Below, one piece after another: positions 3,529 through 24,913 of a DNA stretch of 26,834 bases. Within the stretch, counting starts at the first letter, position 1, and each line of letters begins with the position of its first letter. The DNA is from a virus (lineage: Duplodnaviria > Caudoviricetes), in IMG/VR virus record IMGVR_UViG_3300012663_000751, positions 1 to 26,834 of that record. One strand, 5' to 3'. The position numbers and the translations under genes were made by a program. The notes beneath the pieces were generated by a model. It saw nothing but the letters and a program-made list of their open reading frames with translations, was not told the DNA's origin and made no database searches.

Positions 3529-3837
3529 ATGGTCAAAGTAAAAGAAATAAAAGATGGTGCAACTCTAAACATTACAGTAAATAAGAATTTTTACATAATG
3601 TGTAAATCTCTTTCATTTTATCTATTCCAACAAATTGGTGAAAAACAAAATGAAGATTATCTTAAAGACATTATGAGTAAGTCTTATTCAGACTTAGATG
3701 ACTTGCAAAAATCATTTTATACTATTGCTCTTTTATTAGCTGAAATTGAAGCACAAGCTAAAGATTCTGACCAATATGAAGAAAAAGAAATTCTTCAACC
3801 AAATGATGAAGGTTTCATTGAACCTACCCAAGATTAA
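3529..3837 (+). CDS. Hypothetical protein (102 aa)
   Basis: Start moved to ATG 3529 (MVKVKEIK) to avoid overlap with ung; acidic C-terminus. Confidence 0.7.
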   Translation: MVKVKEIKDGATLNITVNKNFYIMCKSLSFYLFQQIGEKQNEDYLKDIMSKSYSDLDDLQKSFYTIALLLAEIEAQAKDSDQYEEKEILQPNDEGFIEPTQD

Positions 3838-4198
3838 GATTAAAATCTCTTCCAATCTCTACACAAGACTCTATAGCTAGAGCCAATTCTGATTTACTAC
3901 AGTCAGCAAAAGATTTACAAATCTCTGCATCTCCTGCATCATAACAAAGACCTGCATGGGTCTTAATAATCCGTTTCATTTCATCAAAAGTATAGCCAGA
4001 TTCCTGTGCTAATGTACGTATGCATGCATGTACTTTAGCCACCTGTGCTAGTGAGGCATTGTCAGAAGTTAAGCCCATAAAGACCTCAACCTGCTGTCCA
4101 TCAGCAAGTTTATCAATGAAAATCTGAAAATTTAATTTTGATTTATCATCAGGATAAACTAACTTACCCCCACGTTTCACTAATTTAGTAGTAAACAT
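3824..4198 (-). CDS. NinB/Orf-like recombination accessory protein (tentative)
   Basis: SLAQVAKVHACIRTLAQESGYTFDEMK...KSFADCSKSEL resembles the NinB/YbcN pattern. Confidence 0.5.
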   Translation of the reverse strand: MFTTKLVKRGGKLVYPDDKSKLNFQIFIDKLADGQQVEVFMGLTSDNASLAQVAKVHACIRTLAQESGYTFDEMKRIIKTHAGLCYDAGDAEICKSFADCSKSELALAIESCVEIGRDFNLNLG

Positions 4199-6263: not shown

Positions 6264-7133
6264 TTAGAAAATGTAACGGATAGTGTTCCATGGAAGGATC
6301 CTATCATGAAGTTCCTGAAATTGTCTAATATAGTCTGCCTTCCTTCTGTGTTCATATCTAACATTGGTACCACCATACTGAGAAACTTTTGATTCTTGAA
6401 TTTTTGGAGTCCATAAGAACTCTTCACCTGGTAATTTATTTGCTACATTATACCAATGCTTTTCTTCATTATGAGTTAAAAAGATTACCTCAGCTTTAAC
6501 TCTTGTAAGATCCCAACCATGACTTTTTGCCATAAAAGCAACACTTTTAAATAAAGTTTCATAATGCTGTAACCAGTTGTCATGTACAATAACAGGACTA
6601 AAGTTTAAGTGAACATCATATCCGGCATTTAAAAACTGGGTTATTGCTAAAAGTCTTTCATAAATAGTACTTGTATGAGGTTCAAGGAGTTTATGTAGCT
6701 CAAAGGGCATTAGACTAAATCTAATCCTAACTTTACCTTCAGGATTAAATGCAAGTAAGTCTCTGTTTACATGCTTAGTAGCAAATGAACCCATAGCAAG
6801 TGGATGATCTCTAAAGAACTTAAAGATAGTTTCCCAGTCATGATACTTAGCATGTAGAGCAAAGTCCTCATTGCAACTGATATCATATGTAATATAATCT
6901 CCAGTCTGATTTGGCTTCTCTACATCTGCAAAGAATGCATGGGAATTAATTTCTGTCAGGATATCCATAGTATTTGTAGCTATGGTTAATCCTTCCGGCT
7001 TATGTCTCTTCATATAACAGTAAGTACAGTTATACAAACAACCATGACCAAAGGACGGACTGATATAATCAGTTGACCGTCCTGAAGGCCTAATAATCAT
7101 ACTCTTTCTAGTGACTTTCTCTACAACTGACAT
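6264..7133 (-). CDS. Spore photoproduct lyase (SplB)-like radical SAM protein
   Basis: GCLYNCTYCY CxxxCxxC motif, DISCNED, FATK, RIRFSL and NFSPVI as in the SPL family. Confidence 0.85.
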   Translation of the reverse strand: MSVVEKVTRKSMIIRPSGRSTDYISPSFGHGCLYNCTYCYMKRHKPEGLTIATNTMDILTEINSHAFFADVEKPNQTGDYITYDISCNEDFALHAKYHDWETIFKFFRDHPLAMGSFATKHVNRDLLAFNPEGKVRIRFSLMPFELHKLLEPHTSTIYERLLAITQFLNAGYDVHLNFSPVIVHDNWLQHYETLFKSVAFMAKSHGWDLTRVKAEVIFLTHNEEKHWYNVANKLPGEEFLWTPKIQESKVSQYGGTNVRYEHRRKADYIRQFQELHDRILPWNTIRYIF

Positions 7134-7881: not shown

Positions 7882-8001
7882 TTAGAATAAATTAAAAATT
7901 GTCTGAATAGTAACACCAATAAGAACCAATGATACAATACCTACTAACACCATAGTAATATATGCTGCTATTTCTTCTCTATGTTCTCTTTGATTTTTCA
8001 T
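7882..8001 (-). CDS. 39-aa single-TM peptide
   Basis: Manual: MKNQREHREEIAAYITMVLVGIVSLVLIGVTIQTIFNLF; fills the gap exactly. Confidence 0.55.
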   Translation of the reverse strand: MKNQREHREEIAAYITMVLVGIVSLVLIGVTIQTIFNLF

Positions 8002-8002
8002 A

Positions 8003-8599
8003 TTAAATCTTTTTAAGTATTAAACATCCATCTTTATCAAGTTTTGGTACTGATTTATAAGTTGTAATTTTATCTCCACTACCTTTAACTCTTTTTACTG
8101 CACCAACCACTTTTGTTTTGTCAACAACTTTTTCCATCTCAATCTTAACTTCAATTTCTGTTGGTTGTTGTAGGGATTTTATTAACCTATTCATAGATTG
8201 ACCAAAAGTTTCATTAAGTACAACTTCATCAGGAGAAGTAAAATTAGAGCCAGCTATAAAAGCTCTCTTCATATCCTCCAAAGTAAACTGCTTGTCTTTA
8301 TTCAACTCCATTGCTTTGTTGCAGCCATTCCTAAACCCAAGTCTGTATGGAGCAACTTGTGAGCTTTCAATTACAAAGTTCTCTTTAAATTTAGCATCTT
8401 CTTCAGCCAACTTCTCAACATCAACTACTCCAAATATCTCATCGCAGTTTTGTTTGGATATTTTGTATTTAGTACTAGCTCCTGACTTATCTAGTATTAA
8501 TTGTTGTGAAGGAGAACAAGTAGCTTCAAGCAGTCTTCCTTGTGGTTGCTCTATTCCTAGATTATAACCATCTTCTCTTTTAATCAGTATTGCTTTCAT
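8003..8599 (-). CDS. Hypothetical phage protein
   Basis: 198-aa ORF, ATGA-coupled to thyX. Confidence 0.75.
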   Translation of the reverse strand: MKAILIKREDGYNLGIEQPQGRLLEATCSPSQQLILDKSGASTKYKISKQNCDEIFGVVDVEKLAEEDAKFKENFVIESSQVAPYRLGFRNGCNKAMELNKDKQFTLEDMKRAFIAGSNFTSPDEVVLNETFGQSMNRLIKSLQQPTEIEVKIEMEKVVDKTKVVGAVKRVKGSGDKITTYKSVPKLDKDGCLILKKI

Positions 8600-9243
8600 A
8601 GTTTAAATGCTTTAATAGTATCTACAAAAGGATCACCTTCTATGTTCTTAACTAAGTCTAACATTTGCTGAGCCAATTCTCTCACCTCAACTTGAGCATG
8701 CTCAGAGTTTCTAAGTTCTTGAAAATGTGCAAAAGACCTCCAATTAAACATAAGATCCATAGTAATCTGTGAGTTAAAGGTCTTGAAGAATCTTGCAGAT
8801 TCCTTAGCTCTCTTGCGACCAAGTACAGGAGTTAATTCTTCTAAACACTGATGATAAAGCTCATTGCTTCTCATAGTGTGTTGATGCAATAACTCTTGCC
8901 AGTCTTGTCCTACTAATCCTCCATCACCAGCATTGGCCCAGTCAACAGGAATGTAACTTTTATCTTTCTTTAGCTCTTTATATCTAGCTGACTCACCATT
9001 AATAGAAACTCCAATCCTATGCTTTAAAAGATGGATGTGAGTAGCCTGGTCCACAGTTACTAAAAAGTGCAGTGAAGACTTCTCAAATGGAGTATGATGA
9101 CCTTCTGAGGCCAACATTTCTAAGAGCTTAGGTATGCGCTCAAATTTATCTGGTGATAAATCTCTGGAGGTACTAGTCCATGCTGACAATGCATGTACAA
9201 TATCAGACCCATAGTATCCTAATAATTCTACTGTATTTTTCAT
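8596..9243 (-). CDS. thyX: FAD-dependent thymidylate synthase ThyX
   Basis: GHHTPFE, HLLKHRIGVSINGESARY (RHR-like motif plus SARY), NWRS and HAQVEVR. Confidence 0.92.
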   Translation of the reverse strand: MKNTVELLGYYGSDIVHALSAWTSTSRDLSPDKFERIPKLLEMLASEGHHTPFEKSSLHFLVTVDQATHIHLLKHRIGVSINGESARYKELKKDKSYIPVDWANAGDGGLVGQDWQELLHQHTMRSNELYHQCLEELTPVLGRKRAKESARFFKTFNSQITMDLMFNWRSFAHFQELRNSEHAQVEVRELAQQMLDLVKNIEGDPFVDTIKAFKL

Positions 9244-9404
9244 GCTTCTTCTGTATAATTTTCTACTATTTCATAGTGAGACATGCGCCCACAATTAACA
9301 CACTCTAGCTTATTAGATGATACATGATGTACTGACAATGATTCATGCCCACATAAGTCACACTTAATAAGAGCACTTATCCATCCTGTTTCTAGTTCAC
9401 TCAT
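9240..9404 (-). CDS. Zinc-ribbon protein (54 aa)
   Basis: Manual: MSELETGWISALIKCDLCGHESLSVHHVSSNKLECVNCGRMSHYEIVENYTEEA; two CxxC; ATGA coupling at both ends. Confidence 0.7.
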   Translation of the reverse strand: MSELETGWISALIKCDLCGHESLSVHHVSSNKLECVNCGRMSHYEIVENYTEEA

Positions 9405-9607
9405 TTGTCAATGTGTATTAAAAAACTTATTTTCCTATTCAATGTAGGATACTGGCTCAATAACCATAAAGTTAATTGATCTTGTTCTATTCCATCAATA
9501 TGAAACTCTGCATAAGTATGTATTTTATGTCCTTGCAAGACTGGGTCCTGTTGTAAATGCTCTGGAATCTCTGACAACTTAATTACTGATTTTGTTATTG
9601 TCTTCAT
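9401..9607 (-). CDS. Small hypothetical protein, last gene fed by the cassette junction repeat
   Basis: 68 aa; start codon lies inside ACAAGAACAATGA. Confidence 0.7.
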   Translation of the reverse strand: MKTITKSVIKLSEIPEHLQQDPVLQGHKIHTYAEFHIDGIEQDQLTLWLLSQYPTLNRKISFLIHIDK

Positions 9608-9720
9608 TGTTCTTGTGCATCATTATATAACATATACACCCTTTCTAAAATCTCTTCTTTGAGCTCATCTGTTAATGTTTGTAAATCCAAATCATTTAAC
9701 CATTGTTCAAAATCTTCCAT
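9604..9720 (-). CDS. Cassette peptide (38 aa)
   Basis: Manual: MEDFEQWLNDLDLQTLTDELKEEILERVYMLYNDAQEQ; bounded by junction repeats. Confidence 0.6.
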   Translation of the reverse strand: MEDFEQWLNDLDLQTLTDELKEEILERVYMLYNDAQEQ

Positions 9721-9732
9721 TGTTCTTGTTGT

Positions 9733-9786
9733 TTAAAATTTAATTTGTTTTTTACTTCTTAAGTATTTCAAGTGTAATTCTTTCAT
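9733..9786 (-). CDS. 17-aa mini-ORF or cassette remnant
   Basis: Manual: MKELHLKYLRSKKQIKF between two near-perfect repeats 66 nt apart. Confidence 0.35.
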   Translation of the reverse strand: MKELHLKYLRSKKQIKF

Positions 9787-9980
9787 TGTTCTTGTTGTTT
9801 AAATGTTTCGTTAAAGTATTGTTCTGATATTTCTGTAGTACCAATAGAACTTCTATATCCTTGATAATGAGCATTTATAATCTGCTCCTTATGCATTTCT
9901 TTGGCTTTATCAATGTCATATTGATATATAGCACCTTGAAGCGCATACATGTGCAATAAGTATTCTACTGCTGTTTTCAT
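9783..9980 (-). CDS. MKTAVE-family cassette protein
   Basis: MKTAVEY...KEQI...EQYFNETFKQQEQ; paralog of 10625 and 11082. Confidence 0.8.
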   Translation of the reverse strand: MKTAVEYLLHMYALQGAIYQYDIDKAKEMHKEQIINAHYQGYRSSIGTTEISEQYFNETFKQQEQ

Positions 9981-10135
9981 TGTTCTTGTTTAAATAGTTC
10001 AAGTTCTTCAATTACATCTTTTAAGTTTTCAATCACTTCATTTATTTCAAGTAAATCACTTTTAAAAATAGTAGTTTCAATTTCATTTACTTTTAATTCT
10101 AAAAATGCGTGTGTTCTTTTTATTGTTACTTTCAT
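9977..10135 (-). CDS. Cassette peptide (52 aa)
   Basis: Manual: MKVTIKRTHAFLELKVNEIETTIFKSDLLEINEVIENLKDVIEELELFKQEQ. Confidence 0.7.
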   Translation of the reverse strand: MKVTIKRTHAFLELKVNEIETTIFKSDLLEINEVIENLKDVIEELELFKQEQ

Positions 10136-10269
10136 TGTTCTTGTTGTTTAAAATGATTAATAATTATTCGTGTTTTACGCATCCACAGCCAACGCTTAAA
10201 CTTAAACCATCTTCTTAACTTCTTATGCCAATGGTCGTCCTTTAATCTTTTAGCCGCTTCTTTTATCAT
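10132..10269 (-). CDS. Cassette peptide (45 aa, Trp/Arg/Lys-rich)
   Basis: Manual: MIKEAAKRLKDDHWHKKLRRWFKFKRWLWMRKTRIIINHFKQQEQ. Confidence 0.65.
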   Translation of the reverse strand: MIKEAAKRLKDDHWHKKLRRWFKFKRWLWMRKTRIIINHFKQQEQ

Positions 10270-10460
10270 TGTTTTTGTCTTCTTAGTTCTGCAAGTAAAG
10301 CGTCTGCAAACTTTACGGCCATGATATCAATATCTCCCCTGTAATCAGAGGCTAACATTCCCTGCATTGCCAACCCTGCAAAGTATTCACGCTTGGTTAG
10401 GCCTACAAATTCTGTTTCTTTGTAATATGTAGGTGTAATTGGTTGTTCTCCATTTTTCAT
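10266..10460 (-). CDS. Small conserved phage protein (GLTKREYFA...AMQG family)
   Basis: GLTKREYFAGLAMQG...ADALLAEL, a widespread phage motif of unknown function. Confidence 0.8.
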   Translation of the reverse strand: MKNGEQPITPTYYKETEFVGLTKREYFAGLAMQGMLASDYRGDIDIMAVKFADALLAELRRQKQ

Positions 10461-10479
10461 TGTTCTTGTTGTTTAAAGG

Positions 10480-10623
10480 TTAATAAAATTCTTGTTTTAC
10501 GGTGTAGCCACTTTTATTTGTTCTTTCCCAACAAAATATAACACTTGCACCCATATTAAATTGGTATCTATTTCTATACCAAACACCACCCCGAAACTTT
10601 CTATACCATTGAAATCTGCTCAT
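10480..10623 (-). CDS. Cassette peptide (47 aa)
   Basis: Manual: MSRFQWYRKFRGGVWYRNRYQFNMGASVIFCWERTNKSGYTVKQEFY; stops just before an intact, untranslated repeat. Confidence 0.6.
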   Translation of the reverse strand: MSRFQWYRKFRGGVWYRNRYQFNMGASVIFCWERTNKSGYTVKQEFY

Positions 10624-10624
10624 A

Positions 10625-10897
10625 TCACTTTGTTTTAAATGTTTTATTAAAGTATTCTTCTGATTTTATTTCTTCTGTCAAAAGATTGAAATCTTTTATT
10701 CCATATTCTCCATTCCAACCTTCCGCACTTGCCATAAAACCATTATTTCTTGCCTCAATAACCTGCTCCTTTTCCATTTGTAATGCTTGTTCAAAGTATT
10801 CAGATAAGTCAGAATCTTCATACCATCTTGCCAATAATTCTTTATCAACACTTTCAAATACAATTTGTGATTGCAACCATTCTACTGCTGTTTTCAT
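10625..10897 (-). CDS. MKTAVE-family cassette protein
   Basis: MKTAVEWL...MEKEQVIEA...SEEYFNKTFK. Confidence 0.8.
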   Translation of the reverse strand: MKTAVEWLQSQIVFESVDKELLARWYEDSDLSEYFEQALQMEKEQVIEARNNGFMASAEGWNGEYGIKDFNLLTEEIKSEEYFNKTFKTK

Positions 10898-11085
10898 TGT
10901 TCTTGTTGTTTTGAACTTGCCGGAATTTCCGGATAGTTGGATTTTTTAAAGGTTACTTTACATCTTTCACAAGTGGAATTACTTGCAATTCTATTGTCCA
11001 AAGGCACATAACCAAACTCTTCAATGTAATCATTCATTGAGGCAGTCCATTTATGCCATCCAAATAAGCATAGTATTCTTTTCAT
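10894..11085 (-). CDS. DUF1660-like small Cys/His protein in cassette array
   Basis: ILCLFGWHKW...CERC; ends KQQEQ. Confidence 0.7.
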   Translation of the reverse strand: MKRILCLFGWHKWTASMNDYIEEFGYVPLDNRIASNSTCERCKVTFKKSNYPEIPASSKQQEQ

Positions 11086-11303
11086 TGTTCTTGTTTAAAG
11101 GTTTGGTTATAGTAATTCTCTGCCGTTATATTTACACCATCAAAATAATCAGCGCCAAAAATATCTCCTTGGGTAAATGCTGACATAACTTGTTCACGGT
11201 GCTTTTCTAATGCTTTTACTATGCATGGCTCATCCATTGCAACATTGAGCCCCGTCAACTTATTTATTTCTTCTACTACAAATTCTACTGCTGTTTTCAT
11301 CAT
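11082..11303 (-). CDS. MKTAVE-family cassette protein
   Basis: MKTAVEF...HREQV...AENYYNQTFKQEQ. Confidence 0.8.
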   Translation of the reverse strand: MMKTAVEFVVEEINKLTGLNVAMDEPCIVKALEKHREQVMSAFTQGDIFGADYFDGVNITAENYYNQTFKQEQ

Positions 11304-11857
11304 TGTTGTTTAAGTATGTTAGTATATCTCTTACCTTTTAACTCATCAATAGATATAGGTCTATAATCAATCAAATGAGCATCTACATTAAAGTACTTAT
11401 CTAATGTTGGAGCCGGTTTACTACCTTCATCCGTGTATGCATTACTGACTATAACTTCCTCAAGTTTATTTACATGATGAATATGTGCATGAATATTTCC
11501 CCGGTAGAACTGTACTTCATTAGGATGGATAGGTACATGAGTAACAATAAATCCTTTGTAGTCTACAGCTCCGGCAACACCATCTACATAAAGTAGTAGC
11601 TCTTTAACATTCTGATGTCTATCATGATTACCAAGAACTACTATCTTCCTGCCATTTAATTGGTCTAGCTTATAGTAATCTAAGGATTTCTCCATAGTAA
11701 CATCACCTACAATATAGGTAGTGTCTCTTTTAGATACCATTAGATTCCATCTTTTAATAAGATGCTCATCATGCTCTTCAGCATTATCAAATCCTCTATG
11801 CCTTGCTATACTAGCATGTCCTAAATGTAGACATCCTATGAACCTAACTATACTCAT
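11300..11857 (-). CDS. Calcineurin-like phosphoesterase (small phage type)
   Basis: GCLHLGH, VGDV, LGNHD, THVP, HAHIH and NVD motifs. Confidence 0.88.
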   Translation of the reverse strand: MSIVRFIGCLHLGHASIARHRGFDNAEEHDEHLIKRWNLMVSKRDTTYIVGDVTMEKSLDYYKLDQLNGRKIVVLGNHDRHQNVKELLLYVDGVAGAVDYKGFIVTHVPIHPNEVQFYRGNIHAHIHHVNKLEEVIVSNAYTDEGSKPAPTLDKYFNVDAHLIDYRPISIDELKGKRYTNILKQQ

Positions 11858-11986
11858 TTTTATGTGTTTTTAACAGTGTTGTCTTAATCCATCTTTTTGT
11901 GAAAAAATCACATTTTATGCTGGTTTTAACCCACATAATCGGATATTAACCGGTTAAATAGGTCAAAAATGACACTTTTTTGTGAT

Positions 11987-12190
11987 TTACTTATCCTCAA
12001 TATTAAGGTATCCAATAATAATACCTACACCTGTAAATGTACCCACAGTGTAAACTATTTCAGCTTTACCAATAGGTTCCCAATTACATGTACACATCTT
12101 GTATATACATCTGATTTCTCCAAAAAGTGCGGCTGCACCAAGTAAAATTGGTAATAATGTTATTAGAACTACCCCTGCTTTATTTTTCAT
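11987..12190 (-). CDS. Small two-TM membrane protein
   Basis: Start at ATG 12190 (MKNKAG); two hydrophobic segments. Confidence 0.65.
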   Translation of the reverse strand: MKNKAGVVLITLLPILLGAAALFGEIRCIYKMCTCNWEPIGKAEIVYTVGTFTGVGIIIGYLNIEDK

Positions 12191-12374
12191 TTCTTGTGTT
12201 TTTGTAATCAATAATAAATCCTACTGCTACAATAATATTCATACCCATGGACATGAGTATCTCATGTATGTCTTTGTATACATTCATACTAAGGTGTACA
12301 TGACCTACCATCCAAAATGGTATGGACAAGTTTTGGCTTATCCATACCAAGGTATATCTAATAAAGTGTCTCAA
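12180..12374 (-). CDS. Small membrane protein
   Basis: 64 aa, WISQNLSIPFWMVGHVHL; hydrophobic. Confidence 0.7.
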   Translation of the reverse strand: MRHFIRYTLVWISQNLSIPFWMVGHVHLSMNVYKDIHEILMSMGMNIIVAVGFIIDYKNTRNEK

Positions 12375-12835
12375 GGTTTAGCAACATAATTTACAGCAGC
12401 TGTTGAACCGCTCATAGAATATGTATACAATGTTTTAATTGTTTCAGAACAATCAAAATCATTAATTCTAATTTTTATTGTGCTGGCAGCTTTAAAGTCA
12501 GCATAAAAATCTTCATTAAGTAAATCTACAGATATAACAGCAATAGGATCTTCATCACCATATAATGGACATGATCTTCCGTATTGCTTATTTACACCAT
12601 TTACTTGAAAAGATAGTTCTACAAATACAGGACCATCCCCACAGTAAGCTTCACCACCTACAAAGAAGACAACATCATCATCAACATTCTCTAACTTAAG
12701 ATATACAGACTTCTTTTCACCTGTATATGCAATCTTAGATGGAATATCAAATCCATTATCTAATTTGTTTGTCATCCATTGTGCATTAGAAGTAAAACTC
12801 AATGCAATAATTCCTACTAATAATAATCTTTTCAT
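12371..12835 (-). CDS. Secreted/periplasmic protein
   Basis: Bacteroidota-style signal peptide MKRLLLVGIIALSFTSNA|Q. Confidence 0.75.
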   Translation of the reverse strand: MKRLLLVGIIALSFTSNAQWMTNKLDNGFDIPSKIAYTGEKKSVYLKLENVDDDVVFFVGGEAYCGDGPVFVELSFQVNGVNKQYGRSCPLYGDEDPIAVISVDLLNEDFYADFKAASTIKIRINDFDCSETIKTLYTYSMSGSTAAVNYVAKP

Positions 12836-12838
12836 AAT

Positions 12839-13033
12839 TTAATTTTTTGTGTTGTACAAATGATTTAAGTAACCTAATTTCCAACCTTTTGCAGTCTTAG
12901 ACCAGTCCTTAACTTTTACAAATTTATAAGTTTCTTTTTTCTTTGTAACTGGTTTAGGTCTAGTAAGATATGCAATAATTGGTATCCATATCATGAGGCT
13001 AAGTACAATTATAATTCTAGTCTCCTTCCTCAT
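12839..13033 (-). CDS. Single-TM basic protein
   Basis: 64 aa with N-terminal TM helix. Confidence 0.6.
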   Translation of the reverse strand: MRKETRIIIVLSLMIWIPIIAYLTRPKPVTKKKETYKFVKVKDWSKTAKGWKLGYLNHLYNTKN

Positions 13034-15339: not shown

Positions 15340-16103
15340 TATTTAGTTAAATTGAAAATGTTTTTGCTAATAAATGCTTCAGCAGCACCTGTATCACTCA
15401 TAGCTTTAACAGTCTTAATATGCTTATCAAGATTAGCTAATGCTTTGTTGTGATCATAAGTACCCCAAGCACGCATAAATACTTGTAAGAATTGGTGCTT
15501 AACCCAACGGTCAGCTCTACCAATCTTTAAAAAGAAATCATTGAATGCTTTAGCCATTTCTTGTGCATCAGGATTAGTAATTCTAAACTTACCTGACTTT
15601 AACAATTGGCTTCCGGATACAACAGCAGAAGTACCTTTTGTACATAATGCAGCCAACATTAATGGCTCAATGTCATACATAAGGCGTAAGTTAAATAAAG
15701 TATTGTAATCAGGAATGTGCATCTTAAATGCATTAACATAGTTTAATAATGTCCATGACTTAGATGAATTGTTAAGCATGGCCATTTTATTAACCAAGTC
15801 AATGTCATTATCTGTATCAATGACAATATAAGGAATCTCTAAGTCTTCTGCACAAAGAGCTTTAAATAGATGTTGACCATCTATAACGTAGATTCTCTCT
15901 GTACCATCAATAAACTTGACTTTAACACAGATAACAGGTCTTATAACACCCATTGATCTAATACTTGCTACCATCTTCTGAACATGCTTAGAATCTGTGA
16001 TTCTGTTAATGTTCTCAAGAAAGTAAAACTTGTTGTAGTCTTTGCTAAATTTAATTTTCTTCAATAGTGATAAAGCATTTTTTAAATCATTTTTCATAAT
16101 CAT
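15339..16103 (-). CDS. ParB/Srx-like N-terminal domain protein
   Basis: INR...HVQKMVASI...YVIDGQH...LNNSSKSW. Confidence 0.75.
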   Translation of the reverse strand: MIMKNDLKNALSLLKKIKFSKDYNKFYFLENINRITDSKHVQKMVASIRSMGVIRPVICVKVKFIDGTERIYVIDGQHLFKALCAEDLEIPYIVIDTDNDIDLVNKMAMLNNSSKSWTLLNYVNAFKMHIPDYNTLFNLRLMYDIEPLMLAALCTKGTSAVVSGSQLLKSGKFRITNPDAQEMAKAFNDFFLKIGRADRWVKHQFLQVFMRAWGTYDHNKALANLDKHIKTVKAMSDTGAAEAFISKNIFNLTK

Positions 16104-16125
16104 AATTTTTAATCAATAAATAAAA

Positions 16126-18717: not shown

Positions 18718-19027
18718 GATTGATTCCACTTAATATAGCAGACAATGGATTATTAGCCATTTCCTTAAGCTTAGCCATCATAGAAATAGTAAATACAACT
18801 TCATTGATATGCTTACATCCAGCAACAGCCTCTTTACAAGCAGAACTATATAAGTCCTCAGCCTTGTAGCTATTAAAAGCTAATTTCATTAGCTCTTCTC
18901 TTCTTTCATCTGTAATTCCAAGCATCTCTTGGAAATCAGTTCTATCCTCACCAATAATAAGTACTTCAAACTTACTATCCTTTGGATAAGTTTTTTTCTT
19001 GTTGAATAGTTTTCCTAACACATTCAT
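18707..19027 (-). CDS. Hypothetical protein
   Basis: 106 aa, LGITDERREEL. Confidence 0.75.
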   Translation of the reverse strand: MNVLGKLFNKKKTYPKDSKFEVLIIGEDRTDFQEMLGITDERREELMKLAFNSYKAEDLYSSACKEAVAGCKHINEVVFTISMMAKLKEMANNPLSAILSGINHGE

Positions 19028-19058
19028 AATCAGAATTTTAAGTGAATAAATAAGACAT

Positions 19059-20315: not shown

Positions 20316-21227
20316 CTAGTTCTCAGGAATAATGAACATGTCAATTACACTTTGAAATCTAGGATCAACACTAATTCTTAGTGCAGCAGCATCTTTAATT
20401 GCCTTCTCACGGTTGGCATTAAAAGATGAATTCTCAGCTATGAACTGAGAGCGGTATGTATTCATAGCAGCTCTGTATTCTTCATTAATACGTTGCTCCT
20501 CTAATTCATAAGCTTTTGCTTTATCAGCATTTTCTTTCTGAATACGTGCATTCTCATCACTAACCAAGTTTTTAACCTTGGCTTTGTAATAGTTTACACG
20601 TTGCTCATAAGTTCTATGCTCATTAGCAATTTGCTCATGAGTAGCAAGCAACTGCTGTGCAGTATGATGCTTCTGAATCTTAACTGGTGTTTTCTCACCA
20701 TCTTTAACATTCATCCACTCAATAGCAGGAAGATCAGCTAACTGCTTACGCATCTGAGTCAACTTACCACCTTTGTGGATGAATTGACCAAGATGAGCAG
20801 CATATGCTTCAGCAGATAAGTACTCATTATACTCACTAGGAGTAAGCTGAGACCAACCCCAATTCTCACCTACAGAATTACTGATGTGAAGATCCGGATA
20901 CTCTGGACGCTCAGGCTCTACAAGATTAGAGCTATCAAATCTAGAACTTTCTAATTCTTGAATGATATCACTCTTCTCTTTAATAGCCTCCATCAAGAAT
21001 GCTTGAGTAGCATGCAATTTAGCTTTCTCTTTGAGTAACTCAAGAACTGTAGATGGCATAGCATATGCAGACTCTAAGTCAAATGTCTCACCAGCAATCT
21101 TAATTGATTTACTAGAGACATTGTAAGAGTCTAACTCACGTTGCATTTCTTGTGCACGTTGGTTGCACAGGTTAGAAATAGACTGTGCTTGGGACATAGA
21201 AAGTCCTTTTGTAGATAAATTTTTCAT
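20316..21227 (-). CDS. Long helical/coiled-coil protein upstream of the ncRNA
   Basis: 303 aa; GLSMSQAQSISNLC, AFLMEAIKEK, EAYAAHLGQFIHKGG, HRTYEQRVNYYK and LRISVD motifs; no catalytic motif recognised. Confidence 0.85.
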   Translation of the reverse strand: MKNLSTKGLSMSQAQSISNLCNQRAQEMQRELDSYNVSSKSIKIAGETFDLESAYAMPSTVLELLKEKAKLHATQAFLMEAIKEKSDIIQELESSRFDSSNLVEPERPEYPDLHISNSVGENWGWSQLTPSEYNEYLSAEAYAAHLGQFIHKGGKLTQMRKQLADLPAIEWMNVKDGEKTPVKIQKHHTAQQLLATHEQIANEHRTYEQRVNYYKAKVKNLVSDENARIQKENADKAKAYELEEQRINEEYRAAMNTYRSQFIAENSSFNANREKAIKDAAALRISVDPRFQSVIDMFIIPEN

Positions 21228-21272
21228 AATCAGAATTGGTTAAAAATAAATAAATAGAAAATAAATAGATAA

Positions 21273-22701: not shown

Positions 22702-23169
22702 GTAGTCTGGATTGCTAATCCATAGTATAGGGAATTACATACTCAAAGCAATAAGAGTAAAACCACTGACTGTGTTTCATGTAATCTGTACCTATCATTT
22801 GTTCAAGGTTACTGATTAGTATAATTCCGGAAGATGTTACTGTGCTCTTCTTACTGTATATAGTAGTAGTAATAGTAATAAGTATAGTATATATAGAGAT
22901 AATACATATAGAGCTATGTTAGTACTCATGTTAGCTATATATACTAGTAATATATGCCTAAAACACTCATTTTGTACCACTTACTATGACCGTAATAATA
23001 GGAAGTGTTTTTCTGCCACACTAATTGCCTCTCATTCTCACAAAAAATTACCACTGATAATCAGGCAGTTAGCTTAAGTTGGTCTCATTTCTGTATATAT
23101 AGAGTACAAGACAAACTAACAGTACTATTACTTACTGTGACCGACACAGTACACCGCATCCTCCACCGC

Positions 23170-23182
23170 AGTTACAAGCGGC
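23170..23182 (-). promoter_or_regulatory. GCCGCTTGTAACT, 1-mismatch copy of the early motif
   Basis: 12/13 match to the four perfect copies; points into a non-coding tract. Confidence 0.55.
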
Positions 23183-23225
23183 AACCAAGCCTGAGCCTTT
23201 AGGCTCATACACCATGGGTCTGTAC

Positions 23226-23260
23226 AAAAAGAAAAACCCTGCACTTCCGTGCAAGGTTCT
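23226..23260 (-). terminator. Rho-independent terminator
   Basis: AACCTTGCAC-GGAA-GTGCAGGGTT followed by TTTCTTTTT. Confidence 0.8.
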
Positions 23261-23271
23261 TCCCCCAAGAA

Positions 23272-23655
23272 TTACTTCTTCTGAACTTTGTCAAAATCAG
23301 CAATCTCCAACAATGACATATCAATGCCAAAGTCTTCCGCAGTAGCTTGAGTAGCTCTGTCAAGGTGAGATAATACAAGCAAAGGTAATTTACCTGCTAC
23401 TTGAATGATTTTGCCAAGGTACGTAGTACCAACAGACATCCCGTAATTGTAGTTGCTTTGGTATACCAAGCATCCACGTTTTACAAGATCACCCGCAACA
23501 TTCTCATACTGCACAGTAGCAGGATAGAAGTTGGTACCTTTGCTGTTAGGAATAGCATCTTTAGCAATTGAGATTAACTCACCTTGCATAGAAGCAACTA
23601 ACATCTTCTCACCCGTGTTTGGGTTTGTTTCTAATTTAAAATCATACTTTGCCAT
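23272..23655 (-). CDS. Putative OB-fold-like early protein
   Basis: 127 aa, beta-rich, GELISI...NSKGTNFYPATV, acidic tail. Confidence 0.7.
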   Translation of the reverse strand: MAKYDFKLETNPNTGEKMLVASMQGELISIAKDAIPNSKGTNFYPATVQYENVAGDLVKRGCLVYQSNYNYGMSVGTTYLGKIIQVAGKLPLLVLSHLDRATQATAEDFGIDMSLLEIADFDKVQKK

Positions 23656-23701
23656 AATGATGGGGTTTTAAGTAATTAATAAATAAACAATAATCCCTAA
23701 C

Positions 23702-23714
23702 AGTTAAAAGCGGC
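23702..23714 (-). promoter_or_regulatory. GCCGCTTTTAACT repeated motif (putative phage promoter)
   Basis: Identical 13-mer, 46 nt upstream of ATG 23655. Confidence 0.7.
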
Positions 23715-23773
23715 AAATAAGCCTGTTGCGCAGCAACATTCACAATGGGTCAATCAGAGTTAGTATAAGAGCA

Positions 23774-24055
23774 CTATGCTCCTATACTAAACTCCAATGT
23801 TGGAAGCTCACGTACTTTTGTTAAAGGTTTAATGTTCATAAAAACAAGATTCTTATAAATCTTACTCCTATAAAGCTTACTCCCATCAACAGTTTCCACT
23901 TTAACAATACAGCCTATGTTTAACTTGTTAAGGTCAGAACCAAAACAATTAGCTGTATATACATTACCATTAGCAACTACATTGCATGCTTGGTAAATGT
24001 TTCCGTTTTGAGCTACTTGTGCTTTACTTGCAAAGCCTACAAAAATTGCATTCAT
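23774..24055 (-). CDS. Putative OB-fold-like early protein
   Basis: 93 aa, AQNGNIYQACNV...ANCFG...LNIGCIVKV. Confidence 0.7.
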   Translation of the reverse strand: MNAIFVGFASKAQVAQNGNIYQACNVVANGNVYTANCFGSDLNKLNIGCIVKVETVDGSKLYRSKIYKNLVFMNIKPLTKVRELPTLEFSIGA

Positions 24056-24080
24056 AATAAACAGTTTAAGAATTAATTAT

Positions 24081-24093
24081 AGTTAAAAGCGGC
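24081..24093 (-). promoter_or_regulatory. GCCGCTTTTAACT repeated motif
   Basis: 25 nt upstream of ATG 24055 and abutting the terminator T-tract of the previous gene. Confidence 0.7.
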
Positions 24094-24120
24094 AAAAAAA
24101 TAAAGGGGATTACTCCCCTT
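24094..24120 (-). terminator. Terminator with stop codon in GTAA loop
   Basis: AAGGGGA-GTAA-TCCCCTT followed by TATTTTTTT. Confidence 0.75.
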
Positions 24121-24361
24121 CTTTAAATAAATGACTAAAGTCCTCTTTAATGATTTTAGCAGCAATAGTTTCCTGTAACTGTTTCATAAAATCAACTAAA
24201 GCTTTTCTCTCTATGTCATGCTTCTCTTTAGCTTCTTTTATTTCAGCACTACTATAGTTATGTGCTATCATAAATAGTTGCAAGTCACTATACTCACGTG
24301 TCAAGTTCCAAACTTTCTTTTCAAGCATAGCAACTACTTTGATTAATGTTTCTGTGTCCAT
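24110..24361 (-). CDS. Helical hypothetical protein
   Basis: 83-aa ORF with its own motif and terminator. Confidence 0.7.
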   Translation of the reverse strand: MDTETLIKVVAMLEKKVWNLTREYSDLQLFMIAHNYSSAEIKEAKEKHDIERKALVDFMKQLQETIAAKIIKEDFSHLFKEGE

Positions 24362-24384
24362 TTTAGTTAGTTTAAATTAATATT

Positions 24385-24397
24385 AGTTAAAAGCGGC
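24385..24397 (-). promoter_or_regulatory. GCCGCTTTTAACT repeated motif
   Basis: 23 nt upstream of ATG 24361. Confidence 0.7.
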
Positions 24398-24419
24398 CTA
24401 AGTATTGTGGGTCTGTAGT

Positions 24420-24448
24420 AAAAAAGAAAAGCAGAATTACTCTGCTTT
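24420..24448 (-). terminator. Terminator with stop codon in GTAA loop
   Basis: AAAGCAGA-GTAA-TTCTGCTTT followed by TCTTTTTT. Confidence 0.75.
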
Positions 24449-24610
24449 ATCTTTTAACACACACAGCTCAAAGAATATGTACTCACCTGCAGTTGAGGTC
24501 TTGTACTTCTTAAGCTTGCCAATGGTGATCCATTGGTTGATTGTCTGTTGCATCTTGGTCAGAGTTTCTGAATCAGTAACCAAGATTGCTTTGAATATTA
24601 CTTTGTGCAT
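24437..24610 (-). CDS. Small hypothetical protein (57 aa)
   Basis: ATG 24610 (MHKVIFK); first gene after the strand divergence. Confidence 0.7.
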   Translation of the reverse strand: MHKVIFKAILVTDSETLTKMQQTINQWITIGKLKKYKTSTAGEYIFFELCVLKDKAE

Positions 24611-24636
24611 ACAAATCAATTTAAAAGTTCAAGAAC

Positions 24637-24649
24637 AGTTAAAAGCGGC
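24637..24649 (-). promoter_or_regulatory. GCCGCTTTTAACT repeated motif
   Basis: 26 nt upstream of ATG 24610. Confidence 0.7.
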
Positions 24650-24719
24650 AGCAAGTTTTTCCACAGGAATAAAATCTTCCTTCTGCTGTCTGTTTTCAGG
24701 TTGGTCCTCAGAATTCATA

Positions 24720-24779
24720 GGGGGTACCCACCCAGCTCCGCCACCCCGGGGGGTGCTGCGCTAATGGGTCACCTCCCCC
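24720..24779. other. GC-rich imperfect long hairpin at strand-divergence point
   Basis: GGGGG-T-ACCCA...CACCCC/GGGGTG...TGGGT-CACCT-CCCCC in an otherwise AT-rich sequence. Confidence 0.55.
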
Positions 24780-24913
24780 TCTTATATATCCCAAAACCCA
24801 TCCCGTAGTTTATTCTAAAATTTATCCCTACCTTTACCATGCTACAGGTAGATTGCCCTGGGGGGTTTTCTTTTCATTTGTTCCCCCTGGGGTAATCACA
24901 TAATAAATTGGAT

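Follow-up and report, generated by a model that had tools for sequence, protein, structure and literature searches.

Whether the mosaicism of phage genomes arises from conserved linkers or from random joins filtered by selection is an old question, and few clear linker cases exist. The linker model of modular phage evolution, reportedly due to Susskind and Botstein (1978) and Botstein (1980), places conserved sequences at module boundaries. Integrons, with the integrase IntI and the sites attI and attC, carry tandem promoterless single-gene units in one orientation with varied unknown cargo. Two other systems rely on short repeats. The promoter-early stem-loop (PeSL) cassettes of the T4-type phages RB49 and phi1, in the part of their description available to us, combine a promoter with a terminator hairpin between non-essential ORFans, and their authors (Arbiol et al. 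2010) drew a comparison to integrons (PMC2839356). The Start-Associated Sequences (SAS/ESAS) of Cluster K mycobacteriophages, likewise taken from part of the source, are 13 bases long with a Shine-Dalgarno (SD) core (AGGAG) and the consensus GGGATAGGAGCCC, located 3–7 bases before start codons in one phage cluster (PMC3203893). Here we analyse a 19-base repeat, TAAACAACAAGAACAATGA, which ends one tiny gene and starts the next, and which we call the seam. It was found in a Caudoviricetes genome sequence, IMG/VR record IMGVR_UViG_3300012663_000751, the whole of which (26,834 bases) is the window to which coordinates refer. The seam is a point at which gene content differs between phages, and it probably provides both a ready-made translation start and a short homology that allows general phage recombination to add, drop or replace single genes.

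The seam occupies one patch of the window. Its 12-base core, ACAAGAACAATG, has eight exact copies on the minus strand (9605, 9718, 9784, 9978, 10133, 10458, 10895 and 11083), all within 9605–11094, and none on the plus strand. Nine minus-strand copies appear when up to one mismatch is allowed, and two mismatches add just two loose hits (7242 and 9474). Order-2 Markov simulations of the window (300 runs) gave no copy in 298 cases and a single copy in the other two. An earlier note on this DNA had described such a confined patch, with ten units of 17–90 amino acids (aa) and a usual ATGA stop/start overlap, and these points hold: ten units lie between the starts at 11303 and 9607, and ATGA overlaps occur at 8/11 junctions. 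The note's claim that all 11 junctions carry the repeat needs trimming, as eight have an exact core and two are degenerate. The junction with the start at 10623 was rejected as a copy, having hardly any match to the repeat. By form, three junctions are exact 21-mers, one is a 21-mer ending in ATGG, one has two mismatches, two are 18-base short forms and one is core only, besides the two degenerate ones (Table 1). One frame of the seam reads FKQQEQ-stop, the frame of the new start has a TAA 12 bases upstream and the third is open. The seam has little structure (RNA parameters give folds of 0 to −3.3 kcal/mol), and no inverted repeat or dyad symmetry was found in the 19-mer by inspection. Adenines stand at −3, −6, −12 and −13, with one G before the start codon.

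Relatives carry different genes between the same anchors. Eleven genes lie between the phosphoesterase and zinc-finger-like genes in the window; L131 and L136 have two others each, L132 has one other and L141 has only the last gene of the window array, joined through one repeat. L242 has no phosphoesterase gene and carries one gene between repeats followed by thyX, and in L037 the gene upstream of the phosphoesterase gene leads through one repeat to the gene at 8001. The joins lie at the repeat in L131, L141, L242 and L037. The L131 phosphoesterase gene, 91% identical, ends in the full repeat and those of other relatives end in different junctions; phosphoesterase and thyX genes occur both with and without a seam. 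Single units are also found elsewhere. Unit 2 recurs in L017 at 94% identity, starting and ending at both seams, units 3 and 4 occur as one block, and unit 3 has a 149-base match (99.3%) in G005, a 29-kb Erf-encoding phage with 1–2 proteins in common with the window. The unit of exchange runs from seam to seam, and near-identical units occur in phages with almost no other common gene.

Assembly of strain variants at short repeats could in principle produce much of this pattern, but we consider that very unlikely. Junctions share perfect matches of up to 29 bases, the window comes from an unspecified assembler, and no Logan contig from four sequencing runs covered the whole window array. Identical arrays nevertheless come from different samples (L047, L072 and L090; L007 and L048), and the separately built Logan contigs (31-letter words) show single units at 94–99% identity running into other sequence beyond the seams (10130–10278 in a 522-base contig, 10897–11088 in a 3192-base contig and 10874–11095 in a 399-base contig). 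Only contig pieces were used here; Logan joints, with sides of 18–32 letters and unknown letters between, were excluded as deletion evidence.

Comparison with ordinary gene junctions gave the same picture on a larger scale. Of 667 loci, the 530 that had a core were used, without the cellular hits, and gave 1976 non-identical junctions: 733 repeat, 44 degenerate and 1199 control. Merging of identical junctions, applied to both classes, makes both rates higher. The invariance of the core is partly built in, since detection allowed at most one mismatch in 13 bases and the short form supplies much of the variation seen at −15 to −11. Pairs of small genes whose starts agreed (at least 76/80 bases) had different upstream neighbours in 334/349 repeat versus 36/204 control cases; where gene ends agreed, the downstream neighbour differed in 269/296 versus 17/132. 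In close relatives (107 pairs from 260 loci of at least 2.5 kb, in 194 genotype groups), alignments broke at 75/123 repeat junctions (61%), versus 39/236 small-gene controls (17%) and 64/260 large-gene controls. Gene insertion, loss and replacement at the repeat, as the earlier note had supposed, are thus seen in related genomes; the reordering it also proposed takes the form of different neighbours between genomes, not of permutation within one lineage. Internal alignment ends (353) fell at the repeat in 93 cases (3% of the sequence), at a control start in 103 (6%) and elsewhere in 157. Because most ends lie off the repeat, the seam is not the sole hotspot: it is a strong one that amplifies a general tendency and accounts for only part of all exchange.

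The position of the crossovers can be read from bases that depart from the consensus. In broken pairs (413 and 408), such bases at −25 to −16 were shared with the upstream gene (45–77%) and those at +4 to +11 with the downstream gene (45–92%), and those at −15 to −1 were almost never shared. Sharing with the upstream gene ends at −16 and sharing with the downstream gene begins at +4, so crossovers fall within 19 bases, −15 to +3 of the start codon. Identity over −15 to +3 was 0.77–1.0 in broken pairs sharing either side, versus 0.33–0.66 over −15 to −1 in controls. A second junction family, ending ATCAGAATAAGATG, was noticed among the controls and joins 8 distinct upstream to 8 distinct downstream genes, with a variant joining 5 to 4. 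Separately, three cassettes (651 bases) lie in tandem at L001 2578–3712, at the end of record G001, through either unequal crossing-over or assembly overlap.

A different account, which we hold to be unlikely, is that the repeat is an optimal SD-less leader or a translational-regulator site on dispensable genes, and that illegitimate exchanges are filtered to gene boundaries by selection. The 19-mer does precede ordinary genes as single copies in several Bacteroidota genomes, ordinary junctions break at the start codon too, and the adenine positions fit those in the available part of PMC6847099. Ordinary starts, however, are A-rich yet non-identical, with a median perfect match of 4 bases versus 19 for seams, and the difference in break rate between close relatives counts against this account. 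So do the joining of 360 distinct upstream to 367 distinct downstream sequences over the 733 repeat junctions and the 96–98% conservation (partly ascertainment) of C and G positions without a known initiation role. Just 8–10 window starts bear the repeat, all in one patch, and carriers hold one to a few patches, so it is no plain leader of all gene starts. Neither outcome that the earlier note had named as refuting its idea, an unbroken gene order in related phages or an even spread of the motif over gene starts, was thus borne out.

Conservation acts on the DNA and not on the FKQQEQ peptide, because the same six codons appear in 106 of the 110 distinct FKQQEQ-stop matches, where all-preferred codons would be expected in about 10%. 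Of these matches, 101 are exact, 5 have the same codons plus TAA and 4 have a synonymous change; the synonymous-codon search counted 90 new loci and excluded 41 reused from the exact search. The 19-mer is exact in 263/341 coding junctions versus 33/51 where the upstream gene stops earlier. It is also exact in 97/111 junctions that stop at the inner TAA (upward-biased by definition), in 143/199 without a long upstream frame and in 0/31 with another stop. The earlier note had argued for nucleotide-level conservation from two window cases, both of which are as it described: at 10455–10477 a stop closes the 47-aa frame 19 bases short of the start at 10460, and at 9718–9738 the 17-aa frame stops at a TAA inside the repeat at 9717–9737. 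Its further idea, QQEQ tails as degrons or export tags, is not supported, and we hold it extremely improbable that selection keeps the FKQQEQ C terminus as a degron, export or packaging tag. Although 341/733 junctions encode the tail on a frame of at least 30 aa, synonymous variants make up 4/110 versus about 90% expected, the seam is about equally intact when untranslated in that frame, and near-identical genes may have the tail or lack it, as does the MKIEVITPSL gene of L003 and L007. We infer that the tail is a by-product.

The seam is widespread in viruses, with clusters in hundreds of viral contigs. In 24 of the 64 parts of the viral collection the exact 21-mer gave 131 stretches, for an estimated total of about 330; two variants gave 47 and 126, and metagenome contigs gave a further 129. 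It clusters in viromes: among the first 130 loci (some overlapping), 93 hold at least two cores, with none on the other strand. In 33 whole records the 19-mer occurs in 28, with 1–21 copies each in one to a few patches, and a reversed control pattern gave no match. Carriers span at least three unrelated genome types of about 30, 120 and 170 kb. No arrays were present among the 25 hits in 185,579 cellular genomes, where 23 hits were single within 6 kb and two had a second loose copy more than 1.5 kb away, and several of these hits resemble the usual leaders of Bacteroidota genes. Within cellular bins, two short contigs (L358, Flavobacteriia; L354, Phycisphaerales) have a seam with cassette-type flanks and are probably mis-binned phage DNA. 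We found no account of the motif in the literature searched, with most subscription papers and supplements outside its scope.

Carriers of the seam encode differing recombinases. Profile searches of the 28 carriers found Erf in 10, Sak4-like proteins in 6 and RecA-like proteins in 2 (18/28 in total); two further carriers have a BLAST match to a protein at the Erf-annotated position, and the remaining ones are mostly fragments. Of 164 loci examined beside arrays, 81 have Erf and 37 have NinG, and 91 have a 226-aa protein without annotation whose motif may be YqaJ/lambda-exonuclease-like. The window's Sak4-like and NinB-like genes, proposed earlier as catalysts of the system, are candidates only, since other carriers have Erf or a RecA-like protein instead. 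The identity of the first is upheld by its PHROG profile match, and the second is a possible NinB on language-model features, with no hits for 3824–4198 in PHROG and Pfam searches. Tyrosine integrases (PF00589) were absent from 33 records, including 20 near-complete ones, from the 46 window proteins (PHROGs) and from 91 neighbourhood representatives (Pfam). The resolvase domain PF00239 occurred only in two proviruses, both without the 19-mer. When the window was compared with seven whole records (BLASTP at E 1e-4, minimum length 60 aa, so that remote or small proteins can escape), no protein family was common to all, and the most widely shared was the MKTAVEW cassette family, in 7/8 genomes.

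The MKTAVEW family, which includes units 1, 3 and 8, is also the commonest cargo (223/696 cassette proteins) and has no Pfam, PHROG or named atlas match. Its genes contain an internal 21-base stretch, GCCAAAGAAATGGAGAAGGAG in 18/55 genes, at 9877–9916 and 10758–10797 in the window, across which the gene halves differ in 11/12 pairs each way (55 genes). This second swap point is unrelated to the seam, and therefore favours homology over a single specific site. We hold it rather improbable that a dedicated recombinase specific for the seam sequence, from the host or from a family not recognised here, acts on it in integron-like fashion through circular intermediates. Such an alternative would account for the sharp 19-base crossover zone, the near-invariant core, the use of the same site in phages with different recombinases and a homology shorter than the Red-beta minimum quoted in the available part of PMC3945230. 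Besides the second swap point, it is opposed by the enzyme searches above, the lack of dyad symmetry or a hairpin, and the absence of arrays from the cellular hits. Its boldest form, for which we see only a slim chance, supposes a 19-base connector common to unrelated freshwater phages with one host group and read by a dedicated, perhaps host, recombination activity; in this system of integrase-free cassettes, hundreds of micro-genes would pass as ready-to-translate modules among 30-, 120- and 170-kb phages.

The host is probably a member of the Bacteroidota, because SD-like words precede only 28/1199 ordinary (control) gene starts in carrier loci and because the best named matches of the window helicase (about 31%) are crAss-like 'cr' phages. 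In Flavobacterium johnsoniae, adenine at −12 is said to take part in initiation. Adenines at −3 and −6 raise initiation in this species, with enrichment at −13, according to the part of PMC6847099 available. The seam adenines and low structure are consistent with a translation-start role.

We therefore return to the seam as a translation start combined with a short homology, for which we propose five steps. The A-rich, unstructured seam would initiate translation in an SD-less host, and would stop the upstream gene in two of three frames, one through the TGA of ATGA and one through the TAA that lies 12 bases upstream. Most new joins would therefore leave two complete, coupled genes and pass selection. 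In co-infected cells or as genomes replicate, two seams, or one seam with homology beside it, could be paired by template switching or by annealing proteins, which are Sak4-like in the window and Erf or RecA-like in other carriers. Relaxed recombination by Rad52-like phage proteins is described in the accessible part of PMC3945230. Exact copies would recombine best, keeping the sequence uniform across lineages, and new genes may enter the pool through rarer microhomology joins at ATGAA.

Several observations weigh against this proposal. Among relatives, L132 has a degenerate junction linking these anchors, and no 19-mer occurs in three complete ones (G022–G024). Away from the repeat lie 260/353 internal alignment ends, 103 of them at ordinary gene starts, and the gap in Logan coverage of the array counts here too. 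Loci were retrieved by exact patterns and pairs are non-independent, so the rates are not probabilities and the Fisher p-value for close relatives was set aside, and repeat-bearing genes may be more dispensable than control genes. The sole within-locus duplication found sits at a contig end and is perhaps an assembly overlap. Ten of the 28 carriers have none of the three recombinase families by profile search, and we infer the recombination enzyme and intermediates. The weakest step is pairing: unrelated seams have a median perfect match of 19 bases (with 21% reaching at least 23), below the 23–27 bases quoted as the Red-beta minimum in the available part of PMC3945230, and Sak4 is a weak annealer without its SSB (PMC5928155, in part). 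Each event may be inefficient, and exchanges could still accumulate over many infections.

The cargo of the arrays is diverse. The cassette pool comprises 696 proteins in at least 193 families, 104 of them singletons. PHROG searches gave no hit for nine of the ten window units, and Pfam searches none for nine units (all but unit 4) and the 68-aa gene. Unit 8 matched only unnamed viral clusters in the atlas, with structure hits below the atlas bar, and unit 5 has distant homologs only. The pool of micro-proteins is shared among phages, and host-takeover or counter-defence functions are our guess.

Besides the array, the window has genes for ThyX, a DnaB-like helicase, the Sak4-like protein and phosphoesterases, together with numerous small unknowns, mostly on the minus strand. 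Queries with two flanking genes retrieved relatives that include contigs of 112–124 kb, and most of the best-matching sequencing runs are freshwater metagenomes, with no RNA run among those listed. No close cultured relative was found: blastn of 8000–13000 against 50,697 phage records gave a single match, to the thyX gene (67%), and tblastn with unit 3 gave none. Further features lie apart from the array. A gene at 6264–7133 belongs to a spore-photoproduct-lyase-like radical SAM family, and its homologs in L549 and L553 carry intein domains. G+C-rich inverted segments at 24712–24890 fill a non-coding gap between divergent gene blocks and are possibly an origin or genome-end region. A 36-base A/T-rich leader precedes minus-strand genes in three copies (16089–16124, 19019–19054 and 21219–21254). 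At 23157–24655, on the minus strand, five copies of a motif around GCCGCTTTTAACT lie upstream of small genes, several after TTT. The motif resembles a Bacteroidota promoter −7 element and may be a second, promoter-type repeat like PeSL. Such an element was absent from the 19-mer by inspection, no promoter scan having been made.

Table 1. Coordinates of the seam array, its flanking genes and candidate recombination genes in the window.
Feature	Position	Strand	Remarks
Metallophosphoesterase gene, upstream anchor	11300..11857	-	PHROG 547 E 1e-36; ends KQQ in junction 1
Junction 1, degenerate, TAAACAACA then ATGA	11300..11313	-	
Unit 1, 73 aa, MKTAVE-type family, ends FKQEQ	11082..11303	-	
Junction 2, short 18-base form	11082..11099	-	
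Unit 2, 63 aa	10894..11085	-	94% identical copy between other neighbours in Erf-encoding phage
Junction 3, 21-mer, two mismatches at 5' end	10894..10914	-	
Unit 3, 90 aa, MKTAVEW family	10625..10897	-	First 149 bases 99.3% identical in G005
Unit 4, 47 aa	10480..10623	-	Start junction 10620-10639 barely repeat-like
Junction 5, exact 21-mer, non-coding	10457..10477	-	Upstream frame stops before repeat
Unit 5, 64 aa, PHROG 2201-like, unknown function	10266..10460	-	
Junction 6, degenerate, core with one mismatch	10266..10278	-	
Unit 6, 45 aa	10132..10269	-	5 copies elsewhere, different upstream gene each
Junction 7, exact 21-mer	10132..10152	-	
Unit 7, 52 aa	9977..10135	-	
Junction 8, short 18-base form	9977..9994	-	
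Unit 8, 65 aa, MKTAVE-type family, ends FKQQEQ	9783..9980	-	
Junction 9, exact 21-mer	9783..9803	-	
Unit 9, 17 aa, stops at TAA inside next repeat	9733..9786	-	Probably a remnant
Junction 10, 21-mer ending ATGG	9717..9737	-	
Unit 10, 38 aa, ends AQEQ	9604..9720	-	
Junction 11, core only	9604..9616	-	
68-aa gene, started by last junction	9401..9607	-	In L141 directly after phosphoesterase gene via one repeat
54-aa zinc-finger-like gene	9240..9404	-	Downstream anchor in L131, L132, L136, L141
Possible NinB/Orf-like recombination mediator	3824..4198	-	Language-model (atlas) features, 0.93 to cluster 65% NinB
Sak4-like single-strand annealing protein, cut by contig end	1..448	-	PHROG 124 E 5e-19; Pfam AAA_24; candidate catalyst

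The term 'integron-like', used in the earlier note, is a loose analogy. Seam arrays do consist of tandem single-gene cassettes in one orientation that vary between genomes, but unlike integrons they have no tyrosine recombinase and no attC hairpin, form several separate patches per genome and give no evidence of a primary insertion site (attI). With neither an integrase nor an attC-type site found, the seam system is not an integron. SAS resemble the seam more closely in form: according to the part of the source available, they are likewise non-palindromic, lie in one orientation before the starts of non-structural genes, are rare in host cells, sometimes hold the upstream stop and have a proposed initiation role (PMC3203893). 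The seam differs in including the start codon, in lacking an SD sequence and in marking exchange points, whereas SAS, in that same part, are not tied to breakpoints (PMC3203893).

PeSL is closer in behaviour. Both are short conserved repeats between ORFans in plastic regions, at which insertions, deletions and replacements occur with no integrase identified in the available part of PMC2839356. The seam is unstructured, with no stem-loop terminator of the PeSL type (folds of 0 to −3.3 kcal/mol); it overlaps stop and start codons and would couple translation, and unlike PeSL as there described it is common to phage groups with almost no shared genes. PeSL mini-circles were demonstrated by experiment (PMC2839356, in part), whereas the seam is known from sequence alone. 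The seam system likely works like PeSL-type linkers, but as a putative translation signal and not as a promoter.

As in the linker model, modules are swapped through short conserved flanks, here presumably by phage annealing proteins, and the incoming gene would be correctly placed and expressed; homology runs through the boundary sequence and ends on its far side. The modules, by contrast, are single genes of 30–100 aa, one 19-base linker is reused within genomes and across lineages, and its length is at or below the minimum pairing length quoted in the available part of PMC3945230. The seam is a variant of linker-mediated modular exchange coupled, we propose, to translation. With crossovers confined to a zone of 19 bases, a matched control and exchange among phages that have hardly any other gene in common, it makes the linker question testable with a short sequence and known enzymes.

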